The notes beneath the pieces were generated by a model. That model did not search any database. It saw only the letters and a list, made by a program, of their open reading frames with translations, and was not told where the DNA came from. Shown here one piece after another: positions 9,129 through 62,949 of a stretch of 64,000 nucleotides of DNA. Source of the DNA: Thermodesulfobacteriota bacterium. GTDB lineage: Bacteria; Desulfobacterota; BSN033; UBA1163. The DNA is taken from assembly GCA_041947025.1 (NCBI GenBank), contig JBHGBJ010000006.1, positions 5,995-69,994 of the forward strand. The letters run 5' to 3'. The position numbers and the translations under genes are program-made. Position 1 is the first letter of the stretch; the number at the start of each line of letters is the position of its first letter.

Positions 9129-10640
9129 CTAAAACCTCCCTCCTTTCTTAGATGTTTTGATAATGATTCGAACCAATGGGATGAGTAGAAAGATGACAGT
9201 CGCAAGAAGAAAGACCATGGAGACAGGTCGATTGATAAAGATCCCAAAGTCGCCGTGGGAGATCATCAGGGATTGACGGAAGGCCACCTCCAATTTCGGG
9301 CCGAGGACTAATGCCAAGAGTAGTGGAGCAGCCTCGTAAGCCCATTTTCTCATCAAAAATCCGAGACCCCCGAAGAGAAGCATCATCCAGATATCGAAAA
9401 CGGAATTATTCACGGTGTACATCCCCGTGATGCAGAAAAGGATGACGAGAGGCAAGAGGATCTTCTTGGGAATTCTCAGGATGTTGGCAAAGAGAGGAAC
9501 AAAGGGAAGATTAAGAATCAGGAGGATAAAGTTGCCGATATACATGCTGGCGATCACGCCCCAGAAGAGTTCTGGGTGTTGCCCAATTAACAACGGACCA
9601 GGATTGACTCCGTGGATGAGAAGGGCACCCAGAAGAATAGCCGTTGGAGGAGCGAAAGGGATTCCAAGGACAAAGAGGGGAATGAAGGCAGATTGGCAGG
9701 CAGAGTTATTGGCCGATTCAGGACCGGCCACTCCCTCTATCGCCCCTTTGCCAAATTCCTCCGGCTTCTTGGAAATCTTTCTTTCAACCATATAAGAGGA
9801 GTAGGTTGCAATGACAGGAGCAGGCCCCGGTATAAGACCGATCCCGAATCCGATTCCCGAACCTCTCAGAATGGGGCCGATGGATCTCCTGACATCCTGA
9901 AGGGTAGGATAAAGTTCTCTCAAACGGGGTACGAGAACATGTTGTTCCAACATCTCCAATGGCTGATCGACATTGAGTAAGACTTCTCCAATCCCGAAGA
10001 GTCCGATGGCCACAGCCACGAATTCAATCCCTCCCAAAAGCGAGATGGAGCCAAAGGTCAACCGGGCATCTCCGGTCACCGGATCGATTCCGATGGTCCC
10101 GATGATCAAACCGATGACTGCCATCATGAGGGATTTGGTGAGGGATGTCCCTGTGACATTACTCAAGACAATAAACCCAAAGACCATCAGAGAAAAATAT
10201 TCCGGGGGACCAAAGGCGAGTGCTGCCTCTGCCAAGGGCGGGGCCAAGAAAACCAATCCAAATATTCCAATCGTTCCTGCGATGAAAGAACCAATAGCAC
10301 AGGTGGCAAGGGCCGGGCCGGCCCTTCCTTTCTGGGCCATTTGATAGCCATCGATGCAGGTAATCACCGAAGCGGTTTCGCCAGGGACGTTGAGGAGAAT
10401 AGAGGTTGTAGAGCCCCCATACATCGCCCCGTAATAGATTCCAGCAAGCATGATGATCGCAGAGGTGGGATTGAGACCAAAGGTGGCTGGGATGAGGAGG
10501 GCGATCCCGGCGATCGGCCCGAGCCCAGGGAGAACGCCGATCAATGTCCCGACAATGGCGCCAATCAAGCAATAGAGAAGGTTCTGAATCGTCGTAGCGA
10601 TCCCAAAACCGTTGAGAAGATGCTGAAATGATTCAAACAT
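9129..10640 (-). CDS. tctA: tripartite tricarboxylate transporter large permease
   Basis: ~503 aa polytopic membrane protein; MFESFQHLLNGFGIATTIQNLLYCLIGAIVGTLIGVLPGLGP... TctA signature. Start set to ATG 10640, 26 bp after tctB stop; ORF-track extension would overlap tctB. Confidence 0.85.
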   Translation of the reverse strand: MFESFQHLLNGFGIATTIQNLLYCLIGAIVGTLIGVLPGLGPIAGIALLIPATFGLNPTSAIIMLAGIYYGAMYGGSTTSILLNVPGETASVITCIDGYQMAQKGRAGPALATCAIGSFIAGTIGIFGLVFLAPPLAEAALAFGPPEYFSLMVFGFIVLSNVTGTSLTKSLMMAVIGLIIGTIGIDPVTGDARLTFGSISLLGGIEFVAVAIGLFGIGEVLLNVDQPLEMLEQHVLVPRLRELYPTLQDVRRSIGPILRGSGIGFGIGLIPGPAPVIATYSSYMVERKISKKPEEFGKGAIEGVAGPESANNSACQSAFIPLFVLGIPFAPPTAILLGALLIHGVNPGPLLIGQHPELFWGVIASMYIGNFILLILNLPFVPLFANILRIPKKILLPLVILFCITGMYTVNNSVFDIWMMLLFGGLGFLMRKWAYEAAPLLLALVLGPKLEVAFRQSLMISHGDFGIFINRPVSMVFLLATVIFLLIPLVRIIIKTSKKGGRF

Positions 10641-10666
10641 CGATCTATTCTCACCCACAAAACATT

Positions 10667-11134
10667 CTAAATCCCAATCCACCCCTTGGGGAGAGGAATT
10701 TTGAGCCACTGAACGAATAGAAAATAACAAGCCAAGGCGGTCAGAAGGGACAGAAGAAGATTGAAGGACCATCGCTTCGTCCCAAGGATTCTCAGGAGGC
10801 CGACCATGAGAAGAAAGGAGACGACCGGGTATCCCAGACGGTTTAAAAAGAGGGTCGCCAATACCATCATTCCGAAAAAGAGAATCATCTGTTTTGTGGA
10901 TCCAGAAATCTCTGGGATGGGAACTTTTTTCTCAACCCTCTTCTTGTCGAGGGAGAGCTGAAGCAAAAAGATCCCGGACAAAACCATCAGGAGCATGCCG
11001 AGAATGAGAGGAAAGAAGCCGGTCCCCGATTTACGGAATGTTCCAATGGGCATTCTTAGAGAGAGAAGGGTTGTAATCGCTCCAAAGACAAGGACCACAA
11101 CTCCCCCAATCATTTCGTCCCTTTTCAATTGCAT
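10667..11134 (-). CDS. tctB: tripartite tricarboxylate transporter small permease
   Basis: 155 aa, 4 predicted TM helices, positioned immediately upstream of tctA. Confidence 0.65.
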   Translation of the reverse strand: MQLKRDEMIGGVVVLVFGAITTLLSLRMPIGTFRKSGTGFFPLILGMLLMVLSGIFLLQLSLDKKRVEKKVPIPEISGSTKQMILFFGMMVLATLFLNRLGYPVVSFLLMVGLLRILGTKRWSFNLLLSLLTALACYFLFVQWLKIPLPKGWIGI

Positions 11135-53645: not shown

Positions 53646-55355
53646 ATGACTTCCTGGAAACTGATTCAGAAGGCCAAACGCATTCTCGAGAAAGAGAGAG
53701 GAGCTGTTCAAAAACCCTGGGGCGGGAAAAAAACAATATGTCTTATCTACCCCAACACCTACCATGTGGGAATGTCCAACCTGGGATTTCAGACCGTTTA
53801 TCGACGTCTGAACTCGGAAGACGATATCGTCTGTGAAAGAGCCTTCCTTCTCGATCCCGATGACCTTCGAGAGTATCACAATACCCAGACCCCTCTTTTT
53901 TCACTGGAGTCCCAGAAGCCTCTTTCTGACTTTGATATCTTAGCCTTCTCGATCTCCTTTGAGAACGATTTTCCGAACATTCTCACCCTATTAGACTTAG
54001 CCCACATCCCAATCGAGAGCCGGCTTCGTGAGGAAGCTCACCCGCTGGTGATTGGAGGAGGCGTTGCGACCTTCATAAACCCGGAGCCGATCAGCGAATT
54101 TTTTGACCTCTTTGTCATCGGCGAAGGTGAGGAGGTGATCGGGGAATTCTTAGAGATCTACCGTAACTCCTATTCAGATATTGGGAAAAGAGGGAAGGGC
54201 GCTTTCTTGAGAAAGGTGGGAAAGTTGGAAGGGATTTATGTTCCGAAGTCTTATCATGTGACTTACACCGAGGATGGAAAGATTGAGGCGATGACCCCCG
54301 AAACAGGATTTCCCGGACGGGTCAAGAGGAGGTGGGTTAAGGAGATCGATCGATTTCCAACCCGTTCCATTCTCTTCACCCGGGAGACCGAGTTTAAGGA
54401 GATGGCCTTGGTTGAAGTGAACCGGGGCTGTCCCCGAGGGTGCCGCTTCTGTGCAGCCTGCTTTGTCTACCATCCTTTTCGAAACAGAAGCCTTTCCTTC
54501 CTTGAGAATTTGTCAAAAGAGGGTCTGTCCGAGGAAGACCGAATCGGCCTGACCGGAACAGCAGTGTCCGACTATCCCAATCTTCTCCCCTTATGTCAGG
54601 CCATTCTTTCCCGGGAGGGAAGGATCTCTCTTTCTTCCTTAAGGGTGGATGCCATCACTCCTTCTTTGGTTCAATGTCTGAAAGGGGGCGGGGATCGGAC
54701 CGTGGCGATTGCGCCTGAAGCAGGCTCTGAAAGGCTTCGAAAAGTATTGAAGAAGCCTTATACGGATGAGGAGGTATTGAAAGCGGTCGATACATTGACT
54801 GAGAATGGTCTCTGTCAAATCAAATGCTATTTTCTTATCGGTCTTCCGTCTGAAACCGATGAAGATGTGAGAGCCATTCCCGCTCTTGTCAAAAAGATTC
54901 GTCATCGGATTGTCTCAAATCGAAAGAAGGAGCAGAATCGATGGAAGCTGGTCGTGAGTGTCAATCCCTTTATCCCCAAGCCTGCCACTCCTTTTCAATG
55001 GGCTCCCCTGGAGGATGTGGCTCAATTGAAGAGAAAGTTGAAGGTCATTCAGAGGGAGCTTAAAGGTGAGAAGGGGATAGAGATGATCCACGATCTTCCC
55101 AAATGGGCCTACATTCAGGCTTTGCTTTCAAGGGGAGATCGGAAGGTTGCAAAAATATTGATCGCAACTCATCATTACGAAGGGGATTGGGGCCGGGCCC
55201 TCCGGGAGACGAATATCAACCCTGACTTTTATGTCAATCGAAAGAGGGACCTGAATGAAGTCTTCCCCTGGGATTTCATCGACCATGGAATTTCCAAAGA
55301 AAGGTTGAAGCAAGAGTACCTCAAGGCGATGGAAGAAGCAGGAGTGACCCGATGA
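53646..55355 (+). CDS. B12-binding-domain radical SAM protein
   Basis: 569 aa; N-terminal cobalamin-binding-like domain, radical SAM Cys triad (CPRGCRFCAAC). Confidence 0.75.
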   Translation: MTSWKLIQKAKRILEKERGAVQKPWGGKKTICLIYPNTYHVGMSNLGFQTVYRRLNSEDDIVCERAFLLDPDDLREYHNTQTPLFSLESQKPLSDFDILAFSISFENDFPNILTLLDLAHIPIESRLREEAHPLVIGGGVATFINPEPISEFFDLFVIGEGEEVIGEFLEIYRNSYSDIGKRGKGAFLRKVGKLEGIYVPKSYHVTYTEDGKIEAMTPETGFPGRVKRRWVKEIDRFPTRSILFTRETEFKEMALVEVNRGCPRGCRFCAACFVYHPFRNRSLSFLENLSKEGLSEEDRIGLTGTAVSDYPNLLPLCQAILSREGRISLSSLRVDAITPSLVQCLKGGGDRTVAIAPEAGSERLRKVLKKPYTDEEVLKAVDTLTENGLCQIKCYFLIGLPSETDEDVRAIPALVKKIRHRIVSNRKKEQNRWKLVVSVNPFIPKPATPFQWAPLEDVAQLKRKLKVIQRELKGEKGIEMIHDLPKWAYIQALLSRGDRKVAKILIATHHYEGDWGRALRETNINPDFYVNRKRDLNEVFPWDFIDHGISKERLKQEYLKAMEEAGVTR

Positions 55356-56325: not shown

Positions 56326-57366
56326 ATGGATAGCATTACCCATACGCTGACGGGTGTGGTTGTTGCGAAGGCCATAAAGGATGAGAAGGTCGGGAATTGG
56401 GGGACGGTTGCTGGTTTGACGATGGGATTCTTTCCCGATACCGATTTTGTCCTTGGCCTTTTCAACCGTCAATTCTATCTCCAGTATCACCGGGATTTCA
56501 CGCATTCCTTGTTATTAATCCCTTTCTATGCACTTTTTTTCAGTTGGCTCTTTGTTAAAATTTCAAGGCGGCCCTTTTTCTGGAGTTTTTATAAGATCTG
56601 TCTCTCCGTTCTGGTCAGTCACGTCATCCTCGACCTTCTCACCTCTTATGGGACGATGATTCTTTCCCCTCTTTCCGACCACCGGTTTTCATGGGATCTT
56701 GTTTTTATCGTCGATCTGATCTTCTCCGGAATCATCGTTTTCCCATTGTTGATTAGTCTTTTCCTAAGAAGAAAAGCTCCCTGGATCTGCCGTGGCTCCT
56801 TGATAGGAATTTCGCTTTATATCTTTTTCACCTGGATACTGCACCATCAGGCCATTCATCTCGCAAAGACCTTCGCACACAATTTGGACCAAGAAGTCAT
56901 TCAAGTGGCTTCCTTGCCTCAACCCATATCCCCTTTTCGATGGGCCAACTATGTCGAGACCAAGGACAAGATCTACCAAGGGGTTGTCGATCTCAAAGGG
57001 GAATACTCTCAACTTCTCGGAACGCTGACATTGCCTCTCTCCAAACTTCCTTTTTTCAAGAGATATGAAAGGTATAGACGATTGGATGATCTCCTTCAGC
57101 CTCCTGAAAAACTTGTGTATCGGTCCTGGCAAAGATCCGACGGGTCTCCCTGGGTGAAAAAGGCACTGGCTACGAATGGCGTGAAATTTTATTACTGGTT
57201 TGCCCGCTTTCCAGTGGTGATGTCAGTGGAATCCGGAGATGGAAGGCACCGGGTGGAGTTTACAGACGTCCGTTTTTTCTTTCCGAACGTTCGCGTCCCA
57301 TTCGCATACTATGTGGAATTTGATGACTCGGGAAATATTCGCTCAGAAGGGTTTGCGGAGAATTAA
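56326..57366 (+). CDS. membrane-bound metal-dependent hydrolase (DUF457/YdjM-like) with C-terminal extension
   Basis: MDSITHTLTGVVVAKAI... N-terminal His-rich start typical of DUF457, 5-6 TM, ~150-aa soluble C-terminal domain. Confidence 0.5.
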   Translation: MDSITHTLTGVVVAKAIKDEKVGNWGTVAGLTMGFFPDTDFVLGLFNRQFYLQYHRDFTHSLLLIPFYALFFSWLFVKISRRPFFWSFYKICLSVLVSHVILDLLTSYGTMILSPLSDHRFSWDLVFIVDLIFSGIIVFPLLISLFLRRKAPWICRGSLIGISLYIFFTWILHHQAIHLAKTFAHNLDQEVIQVASLPQPISPFRWANYVETKDKIYQGVVDLKGEYSQLLGTLTLPLSKLPFFKRYERYRRLDDLLQPPEKLVYRSWQRSDGSPWVKKALATNGVKFYYWFARFPVVMSVESGDGRHRVEFTDVRFFFPNVRVPFAYYVEFDDSGNIRSEGFAEN

Positions 57367-57379
57367 ATAAAGTATTAGA

Positions 57380-58435
57380 TTAGCTGGTTGGTTTGATATT
57401 CTTTATCTTCCAGCCGCCAGGTTCTTTATTTAAAGTGACATCCAGAACCGTTTCACTCTGCTGGGTTGGGCCCCCTCCCTTTGAAGAGTACACAACAACC
57501 CATGCAACCTTGGCCCCAGCGGTATCGGCCGAAATCGAGTGCTCCCTCAGGGTGTAGGAAAGGTTGATATAGGTGAAATTCTCCCAATTCCTGAGCGTCT
57601 CTTTTTTCTTCCCTTCCCGGTCTTTAAAACCCGCCGAATAACACGACATGAATAGATCGATATTTTTTCTTAAATTTGCCTGACGAATGTTTTCTAAGAG
57701 GTTCTTTATGTTTTCGATCTCTTTATCATCGGATGCGGGTGTTTTAGGGACCACTGGAGCCGGAGGGGGAGAAGGAGGATGCGTTATCTTTGGTTCAGGA
57801 CGCGCCGCAGGTTCGGTGGGAGCGGCGGGACGAGAGGGGAGAGAACTGACCACTTTCTTAGGAATAGGCTTGCTTGGAGCAGACTTTTTGGGTGTAAAAT
57901 GAGAGTAGGCAGACCAGAGGAGGTACCCTCCGATGATGATCACAACAATAAAACCGATCTTCTGGTAGGTTAAGCTTGGAATCCTTATCTGAATCTTTTC
58001 GGAACGGCGGGGCTCCTTTCTTCTTTCTCCGGAAGATAGATCAGGAGAATCCGGTTCATCGGTTGAGGGTTCAGGGTGGCCCTTCTTCATCTCTTCCAAA
58101 AACTCTGGCTCAGGTTCTTCTCTCTTGACCCGTTTGACAGGTTCAGGCTCCCTCCTTGGAGGTGGCGGAGAAGAGCGCCGCTCAGGGGCGGCTTTAGGTT
58201 TAGGGGGAGGCGCAGTTGGGAATTTTTCCTCGAAGTCGAATAGATTTGATGTTTCGATCTCCACTTTTCCGGCTTTAGGCTCCTCGACAGGAGGAATTTC
58301 CTTATCGGTTTTAGGTTGGGGGAATGCCTCAAGTTCCTCTTTCTCGGAAGAAGTCTTTTCAACCAAAGAAGAACCGCATCGAATGCACTCGGTGCTCTTT
58401 TCGTAGAGTAGTTTACACTTTGGGCAGATTAACAA
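57380..58435 (-). CDS. zinc-ribbon / Pro-rich linker / single-TM / periplasmic NTF2-like (DUF4440-type) domain protein
   Basis: MLICPKCKLLYEKSTECIRCGSSL (4-Cys ribbon), ~140-aa P/E/K-rich linker, TM (IGFIVVIIIGGYLLWSAY), P/A-rich spacer, C-terminal ~110-aa domain (NIKNLLENIRQANLRKNIDLFMSCYSAGFKD...) paralogous to 60089..60847. Confidence 0.5.
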   Translation of the reverse strand: MLICPKCKLLYEKSTECIRCGSSLVEKTSSEKEELEAFPQPKTDKEIPPVEEPKAGKVEIETSNLFDFEEKFPTAPPPKPKAAPERRSSPPPPRREPEPVKRVKREEPEPEFLEEMKKGHPEPSTDEPDSPDLSSGERRKEPRRSEKIQIRIPSLTYQKIGFIVVIIIGGYLLWSAYSHFTPKKSAPSKPIPKKVVSSLPSRPAAPTEPAARPEPKITHPPSPPPAPVVPKTPASDDKEIENIKNLLENIRQANLRKNIDLFMSCYSAGFKDREGKKKETLRNWENFTYINLSYTLREHSISADTAGAKVAWVVVYSSKGGGPTQQSETVLDVTLNKEPGGWKIKNIKPTS

Positions 58436-58455
58436 TTTTTATCCCCCACAACAGA

Positions 58456-59385
58456 TCACATGGGATTTGGTTTTGCCGGAGTACTGGGAGGAGGGGAGTC
58501 ATCAGCCAATGTGGTTGCCTGCTTGCTCACCCATACTTCTTTTCCATCTTGCAGTCGAACGCGCAACCAATCCCCTCTTTCTTCAAGAAGTCCTAAGGAA
58601 GTCCCTTTCTTGATGCTGCCAACATTCCTGTAATTTGTTCCTGGCCCATCACGCAGATTTGCATAAGACCATACGATCTGAATGGAACGAAGAGCAGGCG
58701 TTGTCTTAACAACAGGATTTGCCGGAGGAACTGGAGTTGTTTCAGGTTGATCTGCCGGCAGTTTTGCTGACTCCTTCGGTGGTGTAGGCGGAGAAGACGG
58801 GACAGGAGCAGGTGAAGTTCGGTAGTATTCGGGAGGGGTTTTGGAGACAATCACCTTCACCGATTCTTCAATCACCATTTGTATCGCCTTCTCCAGAGGT
58901 GCGGCCTTTCCCTCCATATTCTGGGAGATAATCTTGCGGCCGGTCTTTATGTCGCTCACGCTCAACAGGAGCGCAATATGGGATGGGCTCTTTAGGAGGA
59001 GTCCTTTTCCCTGCTCGAATTGAGTGATGGTCCCTCCAATTAAGAGATGGGCGCCTTTCATCGATTGTTTTGAACCATTCCGGGACAACTGCATCTGGAT
59101 CGTAAAACGGTTGGTTGCCAGTAAGGCGTTACCTAACATCTCTGCCATGCTCTCTTCGGTCTGGCCACTATTCTTAACATTAGATGACTTATCAATGAAT
59201 TTCGTTATCACAACTTTTACTTTGGGCCCCTTATAGTCCTTCTTCTGGGGAGAGGGTTCCGACGAAGAGACAGTCTTGTCGGTGGGATGAATCACCTCTT
59301 TCACCGCTGCGCAACCGATCAATATAGGCAAGATCATAAGGAATACGATAACTTTAACGAATGAATTCTTTGGTCTGTACGTCAT
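58456..59385 (-). CDS. lipoprotein with CsgG/LpoB-like N-domain and C-terminal bacterial SH3 domain
   Basis: Lipobox (LILPILIGC), KVKVVITKFIDKSSNVKNSGQTEESMAEMLGNALLATNRFTIQ (CsgG/LpoB-like), Pro-rich linker, C-terminal SH3b-like (IQIVWSYANLRDGPGTNYRNVGSIKKGTSLGLLEERGDWLRVRLQDGKEVWV). Confidence 0.5.
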   Translation of the reverse strand: MTYRPKNSFVKVIVFLMILPILIGCAAVKEVIHPTDKTVSSSEPSPQKKDYKGPKVKVVITKFIDKSSNVKNSGQTEESMAEMLGNALLATNRFTIQMQLSRNGSKQSMKGAHLLIGGTITQFEQGKGLLLKSPSHIALLLSVSDIKTGRKIISQNMEGKAAPLEKAIQMVIEESVKVIVSKTPPEYYRTSPAPVPSSPPTPPKESAKLPADQPETTPVPPANPVVKTTPALRSIQIVWSYANLRDGPGTNYRNVGSIKKGTSLGLLEERGDWLRVRLQDGKEVWVSKQATTLADDSPPPSTPAKPNPM

Positions 59386-59630
59386 AGGGTTTCTCTTCTT
59401 TCTTTATCGTGACCAAAGAAAAAGAAGCAAAAGTAGTGCCAAAATTTGACAAACCTTTAATTGTTTGGATTTATTTAGTTTTTAGTGAAATGCAGAATTC
59501 GATGCTGCCTTCCATGTTAGGAAAATGGTCCTTTCCTATGACAATTTGGGTAACCGAAGGAATCTCACTCACATTTCTGTCACTGAGAATTGAGGACGGT
59601 TCTGCTCATTCGAGATCGAAGGATGTCCGC

Positions 59631-60068
59631 TCAGATATTCCATTGAATTCCCTCTCTTGATTCGGGCCTTTTTGCTATTTCTGCCATATGATGGGCAATA
59701 CGCAAAATCACAGTGAACATTTCCAGTAGGAGCCTGCTGTAAAGGAGGGTTAAAAGAAATATGAGCGGGGCAACGAGGACGAGGGTAAGAATCCCTAGGC
59801 CTTTTGAGACATTGAATCCGAGGGCGACGCAGAGAAATGAAAGGAGTCCGGCATAGAGAATCGATAAACCGTAAATGAATTTGATCATTTTTGAAGCCAA
59901 ACCCTTGCTGAATGAGAGATCAAAGAGGTTTTGAAGAAAACCGGCCTTCTTCAATAGCCGCACGGCCAAAGATTTCTTCTTGATTGCGGTCTCTGTCAGA
60001 GATTCACCACACTGGATGCAAAGCTTCTTATCGTCTTCATTTAACGTGCCGCAATTCGTGCAATACAT
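59631..60068 (-). CDS. zinc-ribbon domain fused to small two/three-TM membrane domain
   Basis: MYCTNCGTLNEDDKKLCIQCGESL ribbon then hydrophobic segments (ILYAGLLSFLCVALGF, ILTLVLVAPLIFLLTLLY). Confidence 0.45.
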   Translation of the reverse strand: MYCTNCGTLNEDDKKLCIQCGESLTETAIKKKSLAVRLLKKAGFLQNLFDLSFSKGLASKMIKFIYGLSILYAGLLSFLCVALGFNVSKGLGILTLVLVAPLIFLLTLLYSRLLLEMFTVILRIAHHMAEIAKRPESREGIQWNI

Positions 60069-60088
60069 AAATGTCCTCCTCTAAACGC

Positions 60089-60847
60089 TCAACTTATGGG
60101 TTGGATATCTTTGATCTTCCAGTCCTCTCCTTCTTTCTTCAGTACGACATCCAAAACGGTTCTGTTGTCTTGCGGTTTTCCAGATCCTTTTTGAGAAATC
60201 TTCATCCGCCACTCCACCCTGATATGGGCGGAATCTCCTGATATGGCCTGTTCCTTCAAATCATAGGCAAGGTCGAGGTAATCAAACTTTTTCCAGTTTT
60301 CAAGGGTATCGAGCTTCTTCTTGTCCCTATCCTTAAAATCAAGAGTGTAACAGGACATAAAGAGATCGATGTTCTTCTTGAGATTTGCTTCCCGGATCCT
60401 TTCGAGAAGGGATTGTATCTTTTCAGTTTCTTTGGCTTCAAGCACCGGACCCGGGTTCGGTAAGGAAGGTGCCTCGGACTGGCGGGTTTGATCGTGGTTT
60501 TGCCAAAAGAAGTACCCGCCCACAATCACCAGGAGAATGGCCACGCTTGCCATGGCCCAAGGGAAGAGACGAGTTCTGAGAGGTTTTCTCCCGAATGATC
60601 GAAGAGCGGGTTGGGATGGAGCCTCCCGATCCAATAGGGAGCCACATTTTCTACAGTATCTTCCTACCCCGTAAGACTCTTGGCACCGTGGACAGAATAA
60701 GTTCCCTCCTTTCTTTCCCGATCGGGTTGATTCCGTTATGGGAAGCTCAAAAGTGGACCCCTCTTCACTCAAGAGGAAGCTTCCGCACTTTCTGCAAAAC
60801 TTTTTTCCTTCCTCGTATTCGATATTGCATTTCGGACAGACAAGCAT
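60089..60847 (-). CDS. double zinc-ribbon / single-TM / periplasmic NTF2-like domain protein (paralog of 57380..58435)
   Basis: Two CxxC...CxxCG ribbons (CPKCNIEYEEGKKFCRKCG; CPRCQESYGVGRYCRKCG), TM ([18 protein letters not shown]), C-terminal domain IQSLLERIREANLKKNIDLFMSCYTLDFKD... closely similar to the other paralog. Confidence 0.5.
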   Translation of the reverse strand: MLVCPKCNIEYEEGKKFCRKCGSFLLSEEGSTFELPITESTRSGKKGGNLFCPRCQESYGVGRYCRKCGSLLDREAPSQPALRSFGRKPLRTRLFPWAMASVAILLVIVGGYFFWQNHDQTRQSEAPSLPNPGPVLEAKETEKIQSLLERIREANLKKNIDLFMSCYTLDFKDRDKKKLDTLENWKKFDYLDLAYDLKEQAISGDSAHIRVEWRMKISQKGSGKPQDNRTVLDVVLKKEGEDWKIKDIQPIS

Positions 60848-60867
60848 CTTTTACCCCTTCCAGCCAG

Positions 60868-61644
60868 TCATTTGACTCCTAACTCCTCGCGTACCTTCTG
60901 CAAAATATCGGCCATTGTGGGGCCGGCCTGACCGTAAATCACGATATCCGCGGTGCTATCGTAAGGGGTTGGGTCACGGTTGATGATCACCAATTTAGCT
61001 CCGTTTCGTTTGGCCACCAAAGGCATCGAGGCTGCAGGCTGTACGACCAGAGATGAGCCGATGACGATGAATAGATCGCTTGTGGAGGATCGATGATAGG
61101 CCTCTTCGGTTTCCCTTTCCGGCATGGATTGACCAAAGGAGATGGTGGCAGGTTTTAGAGGTCCATGGCAGTCATCACAATAGGGGGCCCTCTCGCCCTT
61201 GCGCAATCTTTCCTGGATCTGATCGCGATCGTACCTCTTCCCGCAACTCAGGCAGGAAACAGCCATGGCTGTGCCATGAAGCTGGATCACCTTCTCTTCT
61301 GAATTTCCAGCCTTGAAGTGGAGGCCATCGATGTTCTGGGTGATGACGCAATCCAGTTTACCGAGTCTTTCCATCTCCGCAATGGCAAGATGGGCCAAGT
61401 TGGGTTGGGCCTTCTTCATGGGTTCGTACATCTCGGTTGCCATCTGCCAGTATTTCTCACGAGAGGTTTCACTCGCGAGAAAATTCTGGTAGTAGAAGTC
61501 TTCGGGATTATACCGATCCCACACCCCCCCCGGACTCCGGAAATCAGGAATCCCGGATTCCGTGCTGAGGCCTGCCCCTGAGAAGACCACTATTTTTTTT
61601 GAACTGAGTATGAACCGTGCAACGTCTTCGGCCTGCTTTGTCAT
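60868..61644 (-). CDS. cobB: NAD-dependent protein deacylase, Sir2 family
   Basis: GAGLSTESGIPDFR, QNIDGLH, Zn ribbon CLSCG...CDDCHG; 258 aa. Confidence 0.85.
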   Translation of the reverse strand: MTKQAEDVARFILSSKKIVVFSGAGLSTESGIPDFRSPGGVWDRYNPEDFYYQNFLASETSREKYWQMATEMYEPMKKAQPNLAHLAIAEMERLGKLDCVITQNIDGLHFKAGNSEEKVIQLHGTAMAVSCLSCGKRYDRDQIQERLRKGERAPYCDDCHGPLKPATISFGQSMPERETEEAYHRSSTSDLFIVIGSSLVVQPAASMPLVAKRNGAKLVIINRDPTPYDSTADIVIYGQAGPTMADILQKVREELGVK

Positions 61645-61814
61645 GTGACTCTCCTGGCTTAAAGTTTGTCCGGATATCAGGGTATCCGTTGGAGGGATAT
61701 CAGAATATCAGAACGCCAGGCTTAACAACCTCTTATTCTTGGACCTTTCCTGATATCTGATACCTCGTATCCCGCCTGTTGATTTCCTGGTATCCTGATT
61801 CCCTCTTCTGATTT

Positions 61815-61846
61815 CGCCTGCCTGCGCCTGCTCGCCGGCAGGTGCC
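61815..61846. repeat. REP-like palindromic element
   Basis: cgcctgcctgcgcctgctcgccggcaggtgcc. Confidence 0.5.
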
Positions 61847-61917
61847 TCGAATTCAGGAATCATATACCACAGGCTACTCTTCTGTTGCAAGGGAGATGTG
61901 GCATATGATAAAATTTT

Positions 61918-62949
61918 ATGATGAAATGCAACTTGATCAAGCAGGGATATCCCCAGGGGAGTTGTTACACGGAGACCGAGGGAGGGAAGTCTCTCGCGTG
62001 CGAAGCGACGCTCAAACAGACCGATGCTGGTCCCCTCAGGCTGATTTCAGCCATTCATCTTTCTCGTCCGGAAAATTACCTCTCTGTCTACCAATCAGGA
62101 TGTAACTTCTCCTGTCGAAAATGTCACTCTTGGACCTTTACGAAGGTCGCCAAAGGGGATTGGTGGTCACCGGCAGATGTGCTGAAGGCCTGTAAGGAGT
62201 ATGATCGGGAGGTCACCCTTCGAGAACCACGGAACAGAGCCACTTCTTTTCATGGCCACGATGCCTGCCGTTGTTGTGGGTCCTGTGTGATGTATGGAAG
62301 ACGATCCTCCCTCTGCCCCAAGGCCATCCAGAAGAAGGACATTCTTTTGAGCCCTCAGGGATGGGGGCCCGCTCGGAATATTGTGGCCTTCACAGGTGGG
62401 GATCTTACCTGTTGCCCGGACTATTATATTAAATGTACCCGTCTGATTAAGGCAGAGACCGATCTCTGGGTGCTGATCGAGACGAATGGCTACGGCCTCA
62501 CCCCTCAGAACCTCGACGCCTTGAAGGAGGCGGGAGTCGATTCCTTCTGGCTCGATATCAAGGCCTACGACGGGACAGATCATAAATGGTGGACCGGGTG
62601 TTTCAATCGAAACATTCTGAAACTACCGGAGGAGATTCTCAAAAGAGGTTTTGTCCTGGAAGTGCTCTCCCTCTATGTCCCGAACTTGGTGGAAACCCCT
62701 CAATTGAAAAAGATTGCCCAATTGATCTTTGATCTTGATCCGGACATCCCGTTCACGATTTTGGCCTTTTTCCCCGAATATCAGATGAAGCGATACAAGA
62801 GCCCCAAGATTTCTGAGATGGTGGGAGCCTTTCTCGAAGTTAAGAAGATCGGATTGCGAAATGTCAGACTTGGGAATGCCGGAATCTTTGCTTCCTCCGA
62901 GGAGGATCAGGTCTTTCTGAGAAAGAAGGTGGGGACGGGGAATTACTGA
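61918..62949 (+). CDS. radical SAM protein (CxxxCxxC, with additional Cys cluster)
   Basis: SGCNFSCRKCHSW radical SAM triad; second cluster CRCCGSC; ~340 aa; true start may be downstream of ORF-track ATG. Confidence 0.65.
   Translation: MMKCNLIKQGYPQGSCYTETEGGKSLACEATLKQTDAGPLRLISAIHLSRPENYLSVYQSGCNFSCRKCHSWTFTKVAKGDWWSPADVLKACKEYDREVTLREPRNRATSFHGHDACRCCGSCVMYGRRSSLCPKAIQKKDILLSPQGWGPARNIVAFTGGDLTCCPDYYIKCTRLIKAETDLWVLIETNGYGLTPQNLDALKEAGVDSFWLDIKAYDGTDHKWWTGCFNRNILKLPEEILKRGFVLEVLSLYVPNLVETPQLKKIAQLIFDLDPDIPFTILAFFPEYQMKRYKSPKISEMVGAFLEVKKIGLRNVRLGNAGIFASSEEDQVFLRKKVGTGNY

Follow-up and report, generated by a model that had tools for sequence, protein, structure and literature searches.

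A four-gene envelope cluster in Thermodesulfobacteriota joins two modules built on paralogous, predicted zinc-ribbon/NTF2-fold membrane proteins

In a 64-kb stretch of a Thermodesulfobacteriota genome (the window), four minus-strand genes at 57380–60847, here called A, B, C and D, form a cluster in which two two-gene modules have been fused. Each is built on a separate paralog of a single-pass membrane protein whose C-terminal domain is predicted to have the NTF2 fold. One module pairs the NTF2 protein A with the predicted lipoprotein B, and the other pairs the NTF2 protein D with C, a small membrane protein containing the DUF4282 domain. The cluster had been singled out from the letters of the sequence without database searches (the sequence-only reading), and all four open reading frames are present where that reading had placed them. 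The module is real, conserved and uncharacterised, and presents known folds in a new combination, an outer-membrane-type lipoprotein with an inner-membrane partner. Few mechanisms are known by which bacteria with two membranes tie the outer membrane to the wall and the inner membrane. Tol-Pal, Lpo-PBP, RcsF-IgaA and NlpE-Cpx are known almost entirely from Gammaproteobacteria. The four genes and their main features are as follows.

57380–58435 (−): gene A, 351 aa, TTG start; predicted zinc ribbon at residues 4–21, transmembrane (TM) helix at ~155–177, NTF2-fold domain at 235–351 (window 57383–57733)
58456–59385 (−): gene B, predicted lipoprotein, 309 aa; signal peptide with lipobox Cys25, CsgG/PelC-fold domain at ~50–190, Pro-rich linker, SH3b domain at 233–293 (window 58507–58689)
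59631–60068 (−): gene C, 145 aa; predicted N-terminal zinc ribbon, two-TM DUF4282 domain, C-terminal tail ...EGIQWNI-COOH (window 59634–59648)
60089–60847 (−): gene D, 252 aa; predicted zinc ribbons at residues 4–24 and 52–71, TM helix at ~96–116, NTF2-fold domain at 136–252 (window 60092–60442)

The cluster is a fusion of two modules

Homolog searches returned 204 sequences for D and 125 for B, and every named homolog comes from a Thermodesulfobacteriota, Syntrophaceae or "delta proteobacterium" assembly. For synteny, 45 related loci (given L numbers; proteins carry P numbers) were scanned with the domains of the window and all their open reading frames were clustered. Two gene pairs recur.

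Module 1 (~25 loci), like D–C: [zinc ribbon–TM–NTF2] then [zinc ribbon–DUF4282], usually in a neighbourhood of its own beside a phospholipase-D-type gene
Module 2 (~15 loci), like B–A: Sir2, [CsgG–SH3 lipoprotein], [zinc ribbon–TM–NTF2], in the arrangement rSAM< Sir2> B> A> (YdjM<) hydrolase< rSAM< FtsZ< FtsA< (rSAM, radical SAM)

Many genomes hold the two modules at separate sites. Where D–C and lipoprotein–NTF2 pairs have merged, at least three different arrangements are found, one of them in a different chromosomal neighbourhood (L004/L007): module 1 is inserted between Sir2 and module 2 in the window, L001 and L006; the order is lipoprotein–NTF2–DUF4282 in L013, L017 and L020; and two lipoproteins, an NTF2 gene and a DUF4282 gene follow one another in L004, L005, L007 and L010, in an unrelated neighbourhood without Sir2. 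In a tree of the NTF2 domains, A falls in a lipoprotein-linked clade and D in a separate, DUF4282-linked one. Taken together, the two-module synteny and the tree identify the four-gene cluster as two gene pairs joined together, each with an NTF2 paralog of its own.

The sequence-only reading had described the four genes as one module. A single four-gene operon or system does not hold, as D–C and B–A stand apart in most genomes and are separated in the window by a 245-bp gap with a conserved, predicted sigma-54 promoter, the gaps within the pairs D–C and B–A being 20 bp each. The wider claim of functionally linked envelope modules is borne out by the pairs, whose members have remained neighbours despite several independent rearrangements and are neighbours in a distant lineage too. 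That reading would have been given up had the genes been syntenic in no relative; both pairs recur in relatives. It was also right that the cluster matches no named system: nothing specific was found in Pfam, NCBIfam, PADLOC, the PDB sequences or the literature, where searches for proteins combining a zinc ribbon, an NTF2-like domain, a transmembrane segment and a periplasmic location, or a CsgG-like domain, SH3 and a lipoprotein, found no paper.

In two unrelated neighbourhoods, at 9723–10943 and 13316–17149 of L004 and downstream of the NTF2 gene of L030, the module is followed by members of an unannotated family ("55"), which includes a 406-aa protein without a Pfam match and a 1277-aa PA14/Big_7 protein; it may be a further partner of the module.

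A and D share an NTF2-fold domain behind a single transmembrane helix

A and D are paralogs, as had been proposed (BLASTP 3e-49), with ~60% identity over the last 113 residues. In the AlphaFold model of D the C-terminal domain is predicted with a pLDDT (predicted local distance difference test) of 93–97 over residues 140–250, and consists of helices at 134–156, 160–165 and 174–187 and four long strands, forming the cone of three helices on a curved antiparallel sheet by which the NTF2 superfamily is recognised. Foldseek matched the domain with probability 1.0 and a target TM-score of ~0.75 to 3rob, 3d9r and 3hx8, all NTF2/ketosteroid-isomerase-like, so that the structure prediction agrees with the NTF2-like domain proposed earlier. 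No Pfam family reaches its cut-off in the domain, the best scores being 15.9 bits for DUF4440 (cut-off 25.2) and 12.4 for SnoaL_3 (cut-off 22) in D, and 12.7 for SnoaL_3 and 12.2 for SnoaL_4, likewise below cut-off, in A. Judged by its modelled fold, the domain is a member of the NTF2 superfamily that belongs to no curated family.

A profile search with this domain found only 298 clusters among 1.84 billion representative proteins. The domain invariably stands at the C-terminus and, wherever members were examined, comes after a TM helix; most of ten distant members that were scanned start with zinc ribbons and a TM helix. A small and sharply bounded family is thereby defined by a C-terminal NTF2 fold behind a TM helix, usually with one or more ribbons at the N-terminus. 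One member, P0382, has an AAA_22/STAND-type ATPase in place of the zinc ribbons, followed by the TM helix and the NTF2 domain, a layout that recalls ExeA/GspA with the wall-binding domain swapped for NTF2.

The N-terminal CxxC pairs of A, C and D are predicted zinc ribbons. The two CxxC...CxxC motifs of D match Zn_Ribbon_1 (PF13240, 31.9 bits; cut-off 25) and DZR (PF12773, 30.9; cut-off 27.3), and that of C matches PF13240 (26.9; cut-off 25). The ribbon of A, CPKC-x10-CIRC, has no Pfam match at E<=1, yet it aligns to the conserved second ribbon of the homologs. The statement that three of the four genes begin with four-cysteine ribbons thus rests on Pfam matches for D and C and on the homolog alignment for A. 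It had been feared that the ribbons might be artefacts of start choice; they are not, because the ribbon cysteines are invariant or nearly so across 25 homologs and orthologs of A start with ML(I/V)C..C at the equivalent position (MLICPKCKLLF...), with an ATG in L001. Full-length homologs of D also keep the ribbons. Start choice does affect the annotation: NCBI begins D (ACE144_04335, P0012) at an internal Met, which leaves 154 aa and truncates both ribbons away, and B is annotated with 293 aa, 16 codons shorter at its start than the longest open reading frame.

The proposed succession of ribbon, linker, TM helix, spacer and outer domain stands for A and D as regards the ribbons, the single TM helix and the outer domain; Pro-rich linkers are confined to A, the linkers of D being short. 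In A, a Pro/Glu/Lys-rich linker separates the ribbon from the TM helix, and a Pro/Ala-rich spacer of ~60 residues separates the TM helix from the NTF2 domain. Most D-type orthologs are 402–410 aa long (e.g. P0029, P0036 and P0069) and have a charged, helical-looking cytoplasmic insert of ~150 residues between the ribbons and the TM helix, which D and its closest relatives do not have. An orientation with the zinc ribbons in the cytoplasm and the NTF2 domain in the periplasm fits a trans-envelope arrangement, and the topology suggested by the sequence-only reading is upheld: cytoplasmic ribbons, one TM helix and an outward NTF2 domain, accompanied by an SH3b lipoprotein of outer-membrane type.

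B is a predicted SH3b lipoprotein with a CsgG/PelC-like fold

B is predicted to be a lipoprotein from its hydrophobic segment (residues 10–28) and its lipobox, ...LPILIGC25AAV, whose Cys25 is shared by all of 27 homologs. With no Asp at position +2, B probably goes to the outer membrane. The C-terminal SH3b domain is matched by SH3_3 (PF08239) over residues 241–289 (48 bits; cut-off 27; E=1.4e-12), and a profile of B run against the PDB sequences matches the solved SH3b domains 2krs and 8b2h. Searches of the PDB sequences with this profile and with a full-length CsgG-type relative returned SH3b domains only, so the relation of the N-terminal domain to CsgG and PelC shows up in the Pfam profile and the fold alone. 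The N-terminal α/β domain is modelled with a pLDDT of ~90; its best structural match is PelC (target TM-score 0.65–0.73), followed by CsgG and FlgT. In B itself the Pfam CsgG family (PF03783) stays below cut-off (17.2 bits against 20.8, at model positions 80–105 only), and relatives of B pass it, with 57.9–124 bits over positions 7–203 (E 1e-15 to 5e-36). LpoB (PF13036) gives no match to B at E<=1 and 18.3 bits, against a cut-off of 22.3, in one relative.

The two membrane hairpins of CsgG would presumably be placed at loops that in the model of B comprise 10 residues (between E114–124 and E135–145) and 2 residues (between E151–161 and H164), and the longer inserts found at these sites in relatives are polar or charged; PelC, the closest structure, has no such hairpins. 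Because of these short loops, the model depicts B as sharing the CsgG fold with no room for pore hairpins, and predicts that it is not a pore. No curli families were found among the neighbours in the window, L001, L002 and L004, and none of the curli, pel or flagellar genes turned up around the cluster. A CsgG channel is rejected on the missing hairpins, the missing curli context and the sub-threshold score, and LpoB is rejected on the lack of any match to its model. Of the earlier description, a CsgG/LpoB-like lipoprotein with an SH3b domain, the lipobox, the SH3b domain and the fold-level likeness to CsgG and PelC remain; at the level of sequence families CsgG is below cut-off in B and LpoB drops out.

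The partner lipoproteins end in a conserved tail

B continues beyond its SH3b domain into a Pro-rich tail that ends in KPNPM-COOH (window 58459–58470). A P-x-P-M-COOH end is found in 118 of 120 B homologs (P0121–P0240), the two exceptions being fragments. Where lipoproteins stand in tandem, only the copy adjoining the NTF2 gene carries the tail, and the other copy stops just past its SH3 domain. Every tail-bearing lipoprotein has one to three SH3b domains. The conserved C-terminal ends of the B and C homologs were absent from the sequence-only reading and are new here.

A distant branch of the family is represented by 80 metagenome loci (L046–L125), with ~25–35% identity in the NTF2 domain, of which 52 have enough downstream sequence for the next gene to be assessed. 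In ~40 of these 52 the next gene on the same strand encodes a lipoprotein of 265–300 aa that lacks a CsgG domain, has SH3_3 in three copies and finishes in a Pro/Lys-rich tail with P-[KRE]-x-M at its end. Compared with B–A, the gene order is reversed and the domain content changed; what stays is an NTF2 gene next to the gene for an SH3b lipoprotein whose Pro-rich tail ends in Met. The pairing of an NTF2 protein with a lipoprotein is thus found in two distant lineages, and a Pro-rich tail ending in P-x-x-M with a free carboxylate is the hallmark of the partner lipoprotein next to most family members, a feature open to direct experiment. Four distant-branch loci carry two successive pairs with different NTF2 paralogs; the tail is ...PK[AV]M in one pair and ...PE[AVI]M in the second. 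The NTF2 block that aligns to TQ(T/S)Y reads TK(A/T/S)Y in the partners of the PE tails, with Lys where the partners of the PK tails have Gln. This tracking of tail type with NTF2 paralog is weakly suggestive of direct contact, two clades being compared in which it is confounded by descent.

A homolog search with another member, P0360 (L126 6001–10212, GCA_964428565.1), gave 8 matches. Its gene lies directly upstream of a Fur-family regulator and the zinc-uptake genes ZnuA/ZnuC/ZnuB, a single case that is a possible hint for the zinc ribbons.

C carries DUF4282 and a tail of its own

C had been described as a small zinc-ribbon membrane protein. The ribbon and two TM helices stand, and the DUF4282 domain, which had gone unnamed, can be added: PF14110 matches residues 50–132 over nearly the full model (56.9 bits; cut-off 27). 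Most of the positive charge lies on the two termini, and both ends of C are probably cytoplasmic, as judged from this sequence pattern. Nearly all of 27 C homologs keep the C-terminal tail (S/P)(K/R)D(G/S)IQWN(V/I)-COOH. The IQWN tail is missing only from DUF4282 proteins of the L004/L007 type, where the neighbouring NTF2 protein is of the A type and not of the D type. No paper mentioning the DUF4282 family was found in the literature, and the module gives this family its first consistent genomic partner.

A predicted sigma-54 promoter precedes B–A

Sigma-54 promoters have a standard layout of a −24/−12 element with an upstream activator site. The gap between C and B, which is conserved in L001 and L006, contains the following elements.

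59427–59441 (−): predicted sigma-54 (−24/−12) element, TGGCAC-N5-TTGC, 41 nt upstream of the B ATG
~59456–59474 (−): IHF-like AT-rich block (GTAAATTCAAAnAATTA), columns conserved both in the C–B gap alignment and in that of 13 orthologous upstream regions
~59521–59550 (−): GGAC(C)ATTTT block (GGACATTTT) with an imperfect inverted repeat, columns conserved in the same set

The TGGCAC-N5-TTGC element is the only perfect match in the window, and the same element precedes the orthologous lipoprotein gene in 13 related loci. By the usual sigma-54 layout, the GGACATTTT block is a candidate for the site of an enhancer-binding protein. The conserved promoter in the gap marks B–A as a predicted separate, conditionally expressed unit. 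In the distant branch none of 69 loci has such an element. A scan of 57000–62000 against Rfam gave nothing near any gathering score, so the conserved gap is not a known RNA. Scans for sigma-70 promoters and terminators were not above expectation (6 found against 4.4 expected from shuffles, and 8 against 6.4, respectively).

No sigma-54 activator gene was found among the neighbours; a conserved response-regulator gene is fused to LpxC and not to an AAA+ activator domain. This gene (family "8"; L001 1541–2908, minus strand) joins a receiver domain to a full LpxC, the lipid A deacetylase, in a protein of 455 aa, and is present in many related loci, 3–4 genes upstream of Sir2 in relatives, a position that falls beyond the end of the window. 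Joining the two is an uncommon route to phosphorelay control of lipid A synthesis.

A bridging mechanism and its rivals

The cluster would, as we picture it, encode two envelope modules, each around a bitopic inner-membrane protein with one or more cytoplasmic ribbons, a TM helix and a periplasmic NTF2 domain. In the first, B would be anchored in the outer membrane and hold peptidoglycan by its SH3b domain, with its Pro-rich tail extended and ending in P-x-P-M with a free carboxylate. A would reach outward from the inner membrane on its ~60-residue Pro/Ala spacer, and the cone of its NTF2 domain would capture the Met-terminated tail of B, in the way that PARC6 and ARC6 take hold of the C-termini of PDV1 and PDV2 in chloroplasts. 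The result would be a bridge from the outer membrane through the wall to the inner membrane, with the zinc ribbon of A as its cytoplasmic end, and the ribbon could report to the cytoplasm whether the bridge is formed or broken. The B–A pair would be made only when a sigma-54 enhancer-binding activator fires. In the second module D would pair with C, whose IQWN(V/I)-COOH tail and ribbon probably lie in the cytoplasm, making C a membrane or cytoplasmic partner for D; contact between the two is more likely in the membrane or the cytoplasm, because the tail of C appears to be cytoplasmic. We put forward this tail-capture bridge tentatively, judging its chances to be somewhat short of even.

Several points weigh against the bridge. 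Tail capture is argued from analogy and co-occurrence, and the structure models are of single chains. ARC6 and PARC6 rank only 22nd–45th among many NTF2 matches (E ~1e-4), and the fold therefore does not tie the domain to them in particular. The rule by which B is assigned to the outer membrane may not apply in this phylum. With a cytoplasmic tail on C, the D–C pairing could not use periplasmic tail capture unless the topology call is wrong. Neither P0360 nor P0388 (L046), which is nearest to it, has a lipoprotein gene next door, and these two stand closest to the query used for the distant branch. SH3 domains bind Pro-rich peptides, and the tail of B could be a ligand of its own SH3b domain.

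Beyond the bridge itself, the module may be a new trans-envelope signalling device, in which an NTF2 "receptor" recognises a wall-bound outer-membrane lipoprotein by its free, Met-ending C-terminus, thereby senses the distance or integrity of the envelope, and passes this to the cytoplasm through the ribbons, with a second paralogous receptor coupled to a zinc-ribbon/DUF4282 protein. We hold this larger proposal to be doubtful. Were it true, the device would represent a new input–output logic, distinct from Rcs, Cpx, sigma-E and Tol-Pal.

An enzymatic role of the NTF2 domain has a small chance of being right. The domain would then be a periplasmic enzyme of the SnoaL, ketosteroid isomerase, scytalone dehydratase or LinA type that acts on a lipid, a wall component or the C-terminus of the lipoprotein (for instance by trimming or attaching the terminal Met), with the lipoprotein as substrate or positioning factor. 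Many of the top Foldseek matches are enzymes or enzyme-like NTF2 proteins, and the 25-homolog alignment of the core family shows invariant polar residues (N155, N159, S165, C166 and E239) together with three Trp. An invariant C-terminal residue on an outer-membrane lipoprotein also recalls Lpp, whose C-terminal Lys is enzymatically joined to peptidoglycan. However, neither the Cys nor most of the polar motif is retained across the wider family, in which the Cys of FMSCY is replaced by V, A, T or L (MSCYS to MSVYS, MNAFS or NLYAP); a catalytic Cys in this motif is therefore unlikely. No Pfam enzyme family reaches its cut-off, and a domain always tethered behind a TM helix, usually with ribbons, better fits a role in binding or sensing.

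It is also quite unlikely that the tail serves as a ligand for the SH3b domain of the lipoprotein itself, either in cis as an autoinhibitory element or between copies in a PelC/CsgG-like ring, the NTF2 protein recognising peptidoglycan, the folded lipoprotein or something else. SH3 domains classically bind PxxP peptides, and SH3b domains are present in all tail-bearing lipoproteins. PelC, CsgG and FlgT, the nearest folds to the N-terminal domain of B, all form rings. Foldseek further matched 7o21, the NTF2 domain of Bd1075, which reportedly serves localisation on the wall. Such an arrangement leaves the invariant terminal residue with its free carboxylate unexplained; it also sits poorly with the restriction of the tail to the NTF2-adjacent member of tandem lipoproteins and with the tracking of tail type and NTF2 paralog in two-pair loci.

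A role of B–A as an accessory of division or wall synthesis, with B as an LpoB-like outer-membrane activator and A as its inner-membrane partner, is improbable, and is compatible with bridging. Within the lineage of the window the pair always lies at the same place near FtsZ/FtsA, at the end of the division and cell wall (dcw) cluster; B is modelled with an LpoB/CsgG-superfamily fold and has a domain of wall-binding type; and A, being Pro-rich and bitopic, recalls ZipA, FtsN and RodZ. The whole neighbourhood is conserved, however, so position alone proves nothing, and three unrelated genes and a change of orientation separate the pair from ftsZ. Loci of the L004/L007 type lie elsewhere, neither annotated distant-branch locus has dcw genes nearby, and the predicted sigma-54 control argues for conditional and not housekeeping expression.

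The sequence-only reading had pointed to anti-sigma-like topology. A and D would then be anti-sigma-like or regulated-proteolysis transducers whose ribbons hold a cytoplasmic regulator, which is freed on a periplasmic signal or by a PDZ protease that reads the lipoprotein C-terminus in the manner of DegS, which recognises the C-termini of outer-membrane proteins. We regard this as very unlikely. The topology does resemble that of single-pass anti-sigma factors, the NTF2 domain of the anti-sigma sensor RsgI9 (7sjy) is the fourth-ranked Foldseek match, and D has a weak NCBIfam anti-sigma match (E=0.013). That match, however, scores 15.6 bits against a cut-off of 100 and covers residues 74–125, which are linker and TM helix. 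The N-terminus is a plain CxxC...CxxC ribbon (PF13240/PF12773) and not ZAS (HxxxCxxC) or RsgI_N, and among the adjacent genes examined, in the window and in related loci, none encodes a sigma factor or any other regulator. With neither a linked sigma factor gene nor an anti-sigma domain, the anti-sigma-like part of the earlier proposal falls.

Finally, it is barely credible that the genes form no functional module and are four unrelated hypothetical membrane proteins kept as neighbours by vertical inheritance: the close relatives are all metagenome-assembled genomes from a single Thermodesulfobacteriota lineage in which synteny is extensively conserved, but the pairs persist through rearrangements, in new neighbourhoods and, with reversed order and altered domains, in a distant lineage, and their partner-specific C-terminal motifs are conserved, so that this explanation is largely refuted already.

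Comparison with known systems

The nearest parallel to the bridge proposed for A and B comes from chloroplasts, with which the papers found on ARC6 all deal. The Foldseek matches of the D domain include the intermembrane NTF2 domains of ARC6/PARC6 (5d9r and 5had) and the PARC6–PDV1 cocrystal 5u9o. In the PARC6–PDV1 complex the C-terminal tail of PDV1 inserts into the NTF2 pocket of PARC6 (PMC9945983). The two arrangements share a bitopic inner-membrane protein with a C-terminal NTF2 fold between the membranes and an outer-membrane-anchored partner with a conserved extreme C-terminus, and the parallel gives a concrete structural hypothesis for contact between A and B. There is, however, no detectable sequence relationship between ARC6/PARC6 and A/D; ARC6 and PARC6 have a stromal J-like/FtsZ-binding domain where A and D have zinc ribbons; and PDV1 and PDV2 are tail-anchored membrane proteins, whereas B is an SH3b lipoprotein. 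The PDV tail ends in Gly and that of B in Met, and binding of the tail by A is suggested by analogy.

In RcsF-IgaA, NlpE-CpxA and LpoB-PBP1B, an outer-membrane lipoprotein with a flexible Pro-rich linker touches the periplasmic domain of an inner-membrane protein and senses or controls the state of the envelope. The N-terminal domain of B is modelled in the same broad fold group as LpoB and CsgG, but the domains are unlike on both sides and no kinase, phosphorelay or penicillin-binding protein is linked to the module. CsgG of the curli channel, PelC of Pel exopolysaccharide export and FlgT of the flagellar H-ring are lipoproteins or, in one case, a periplasmic protein with the same α/β fold as B, and unlike B none of them has an added SH3b domain or a PxPM tail. 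TcaA and YvbJ resemble A and D in having an N-terminal CxxC ribbon, a single TM helix and an outside domain, and JGI names several D homologs "YvbJ". The similarity is nevertheless confined to the 30-residue ribbon, the outside domains being unrelated, and the weak NCBIfam match to TcaA spans just the ribbon (E=2e-4), with 20 bits where the cut-off is 550.

Genes surrounding the cluster

The gene upstream of D encodes a Sir2/CobB deacylase.

60868–61644 (−): Sir2/CobB NAD-dependent protein deacylase, 258 aa (PF02146, E=1.9e-49; NF001753, 259.7 bits against a cut-off of 243)

It ends 20 bp from D, the distance given by the sequence-only reading, which had suggested co-transcription. Sir2, D and C are probably co-transcribed as an upstream unit; the linkage of Sir2 is otherwise indistinguishable from lineage-wide conserved synteny. 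Since conservation extends to the entire surroundings, nearness to Sir2 and to the dcw cluster is no evidence of a functional link, and Sir2/CobB is no more than a possible member of the module. Sir2 adjacency is absent from the L004-type loci and from 2 annotated distant-branch loci. A Sir2-based defence island was considered and rejected: PADLOC, run on the five proteins, detected no defence system, with Sir2 models matching only at E>=5.6e-4.

The region had also been thought more AT-rich than the dcw cluster. The difference is there, with a GC content of 0.43–0.50 against 0.48–0.55 in the dcw cluster, and is only modest; horizontal transfer as its cause is ruled out by the orthologous clusters found at the same chromosomal site in relatives.

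Convergent with A, a gene at 56326–57366 (plus strand) encodes a 346-aa membrane hydrolase of the YdjM family, in which the Pfam domain covers only residues 1–175 and the C-terminal ~170 residues match nothing; the gene is present in many, not all, related loci. Two radical-SAM genes flank the region on the plus strand, at 53646–55355 (569 aa) and 61918–62949 (343 aa), and are part of the neighbourhood between ftsZ and Sir2 that is conserved throughout the lineage.

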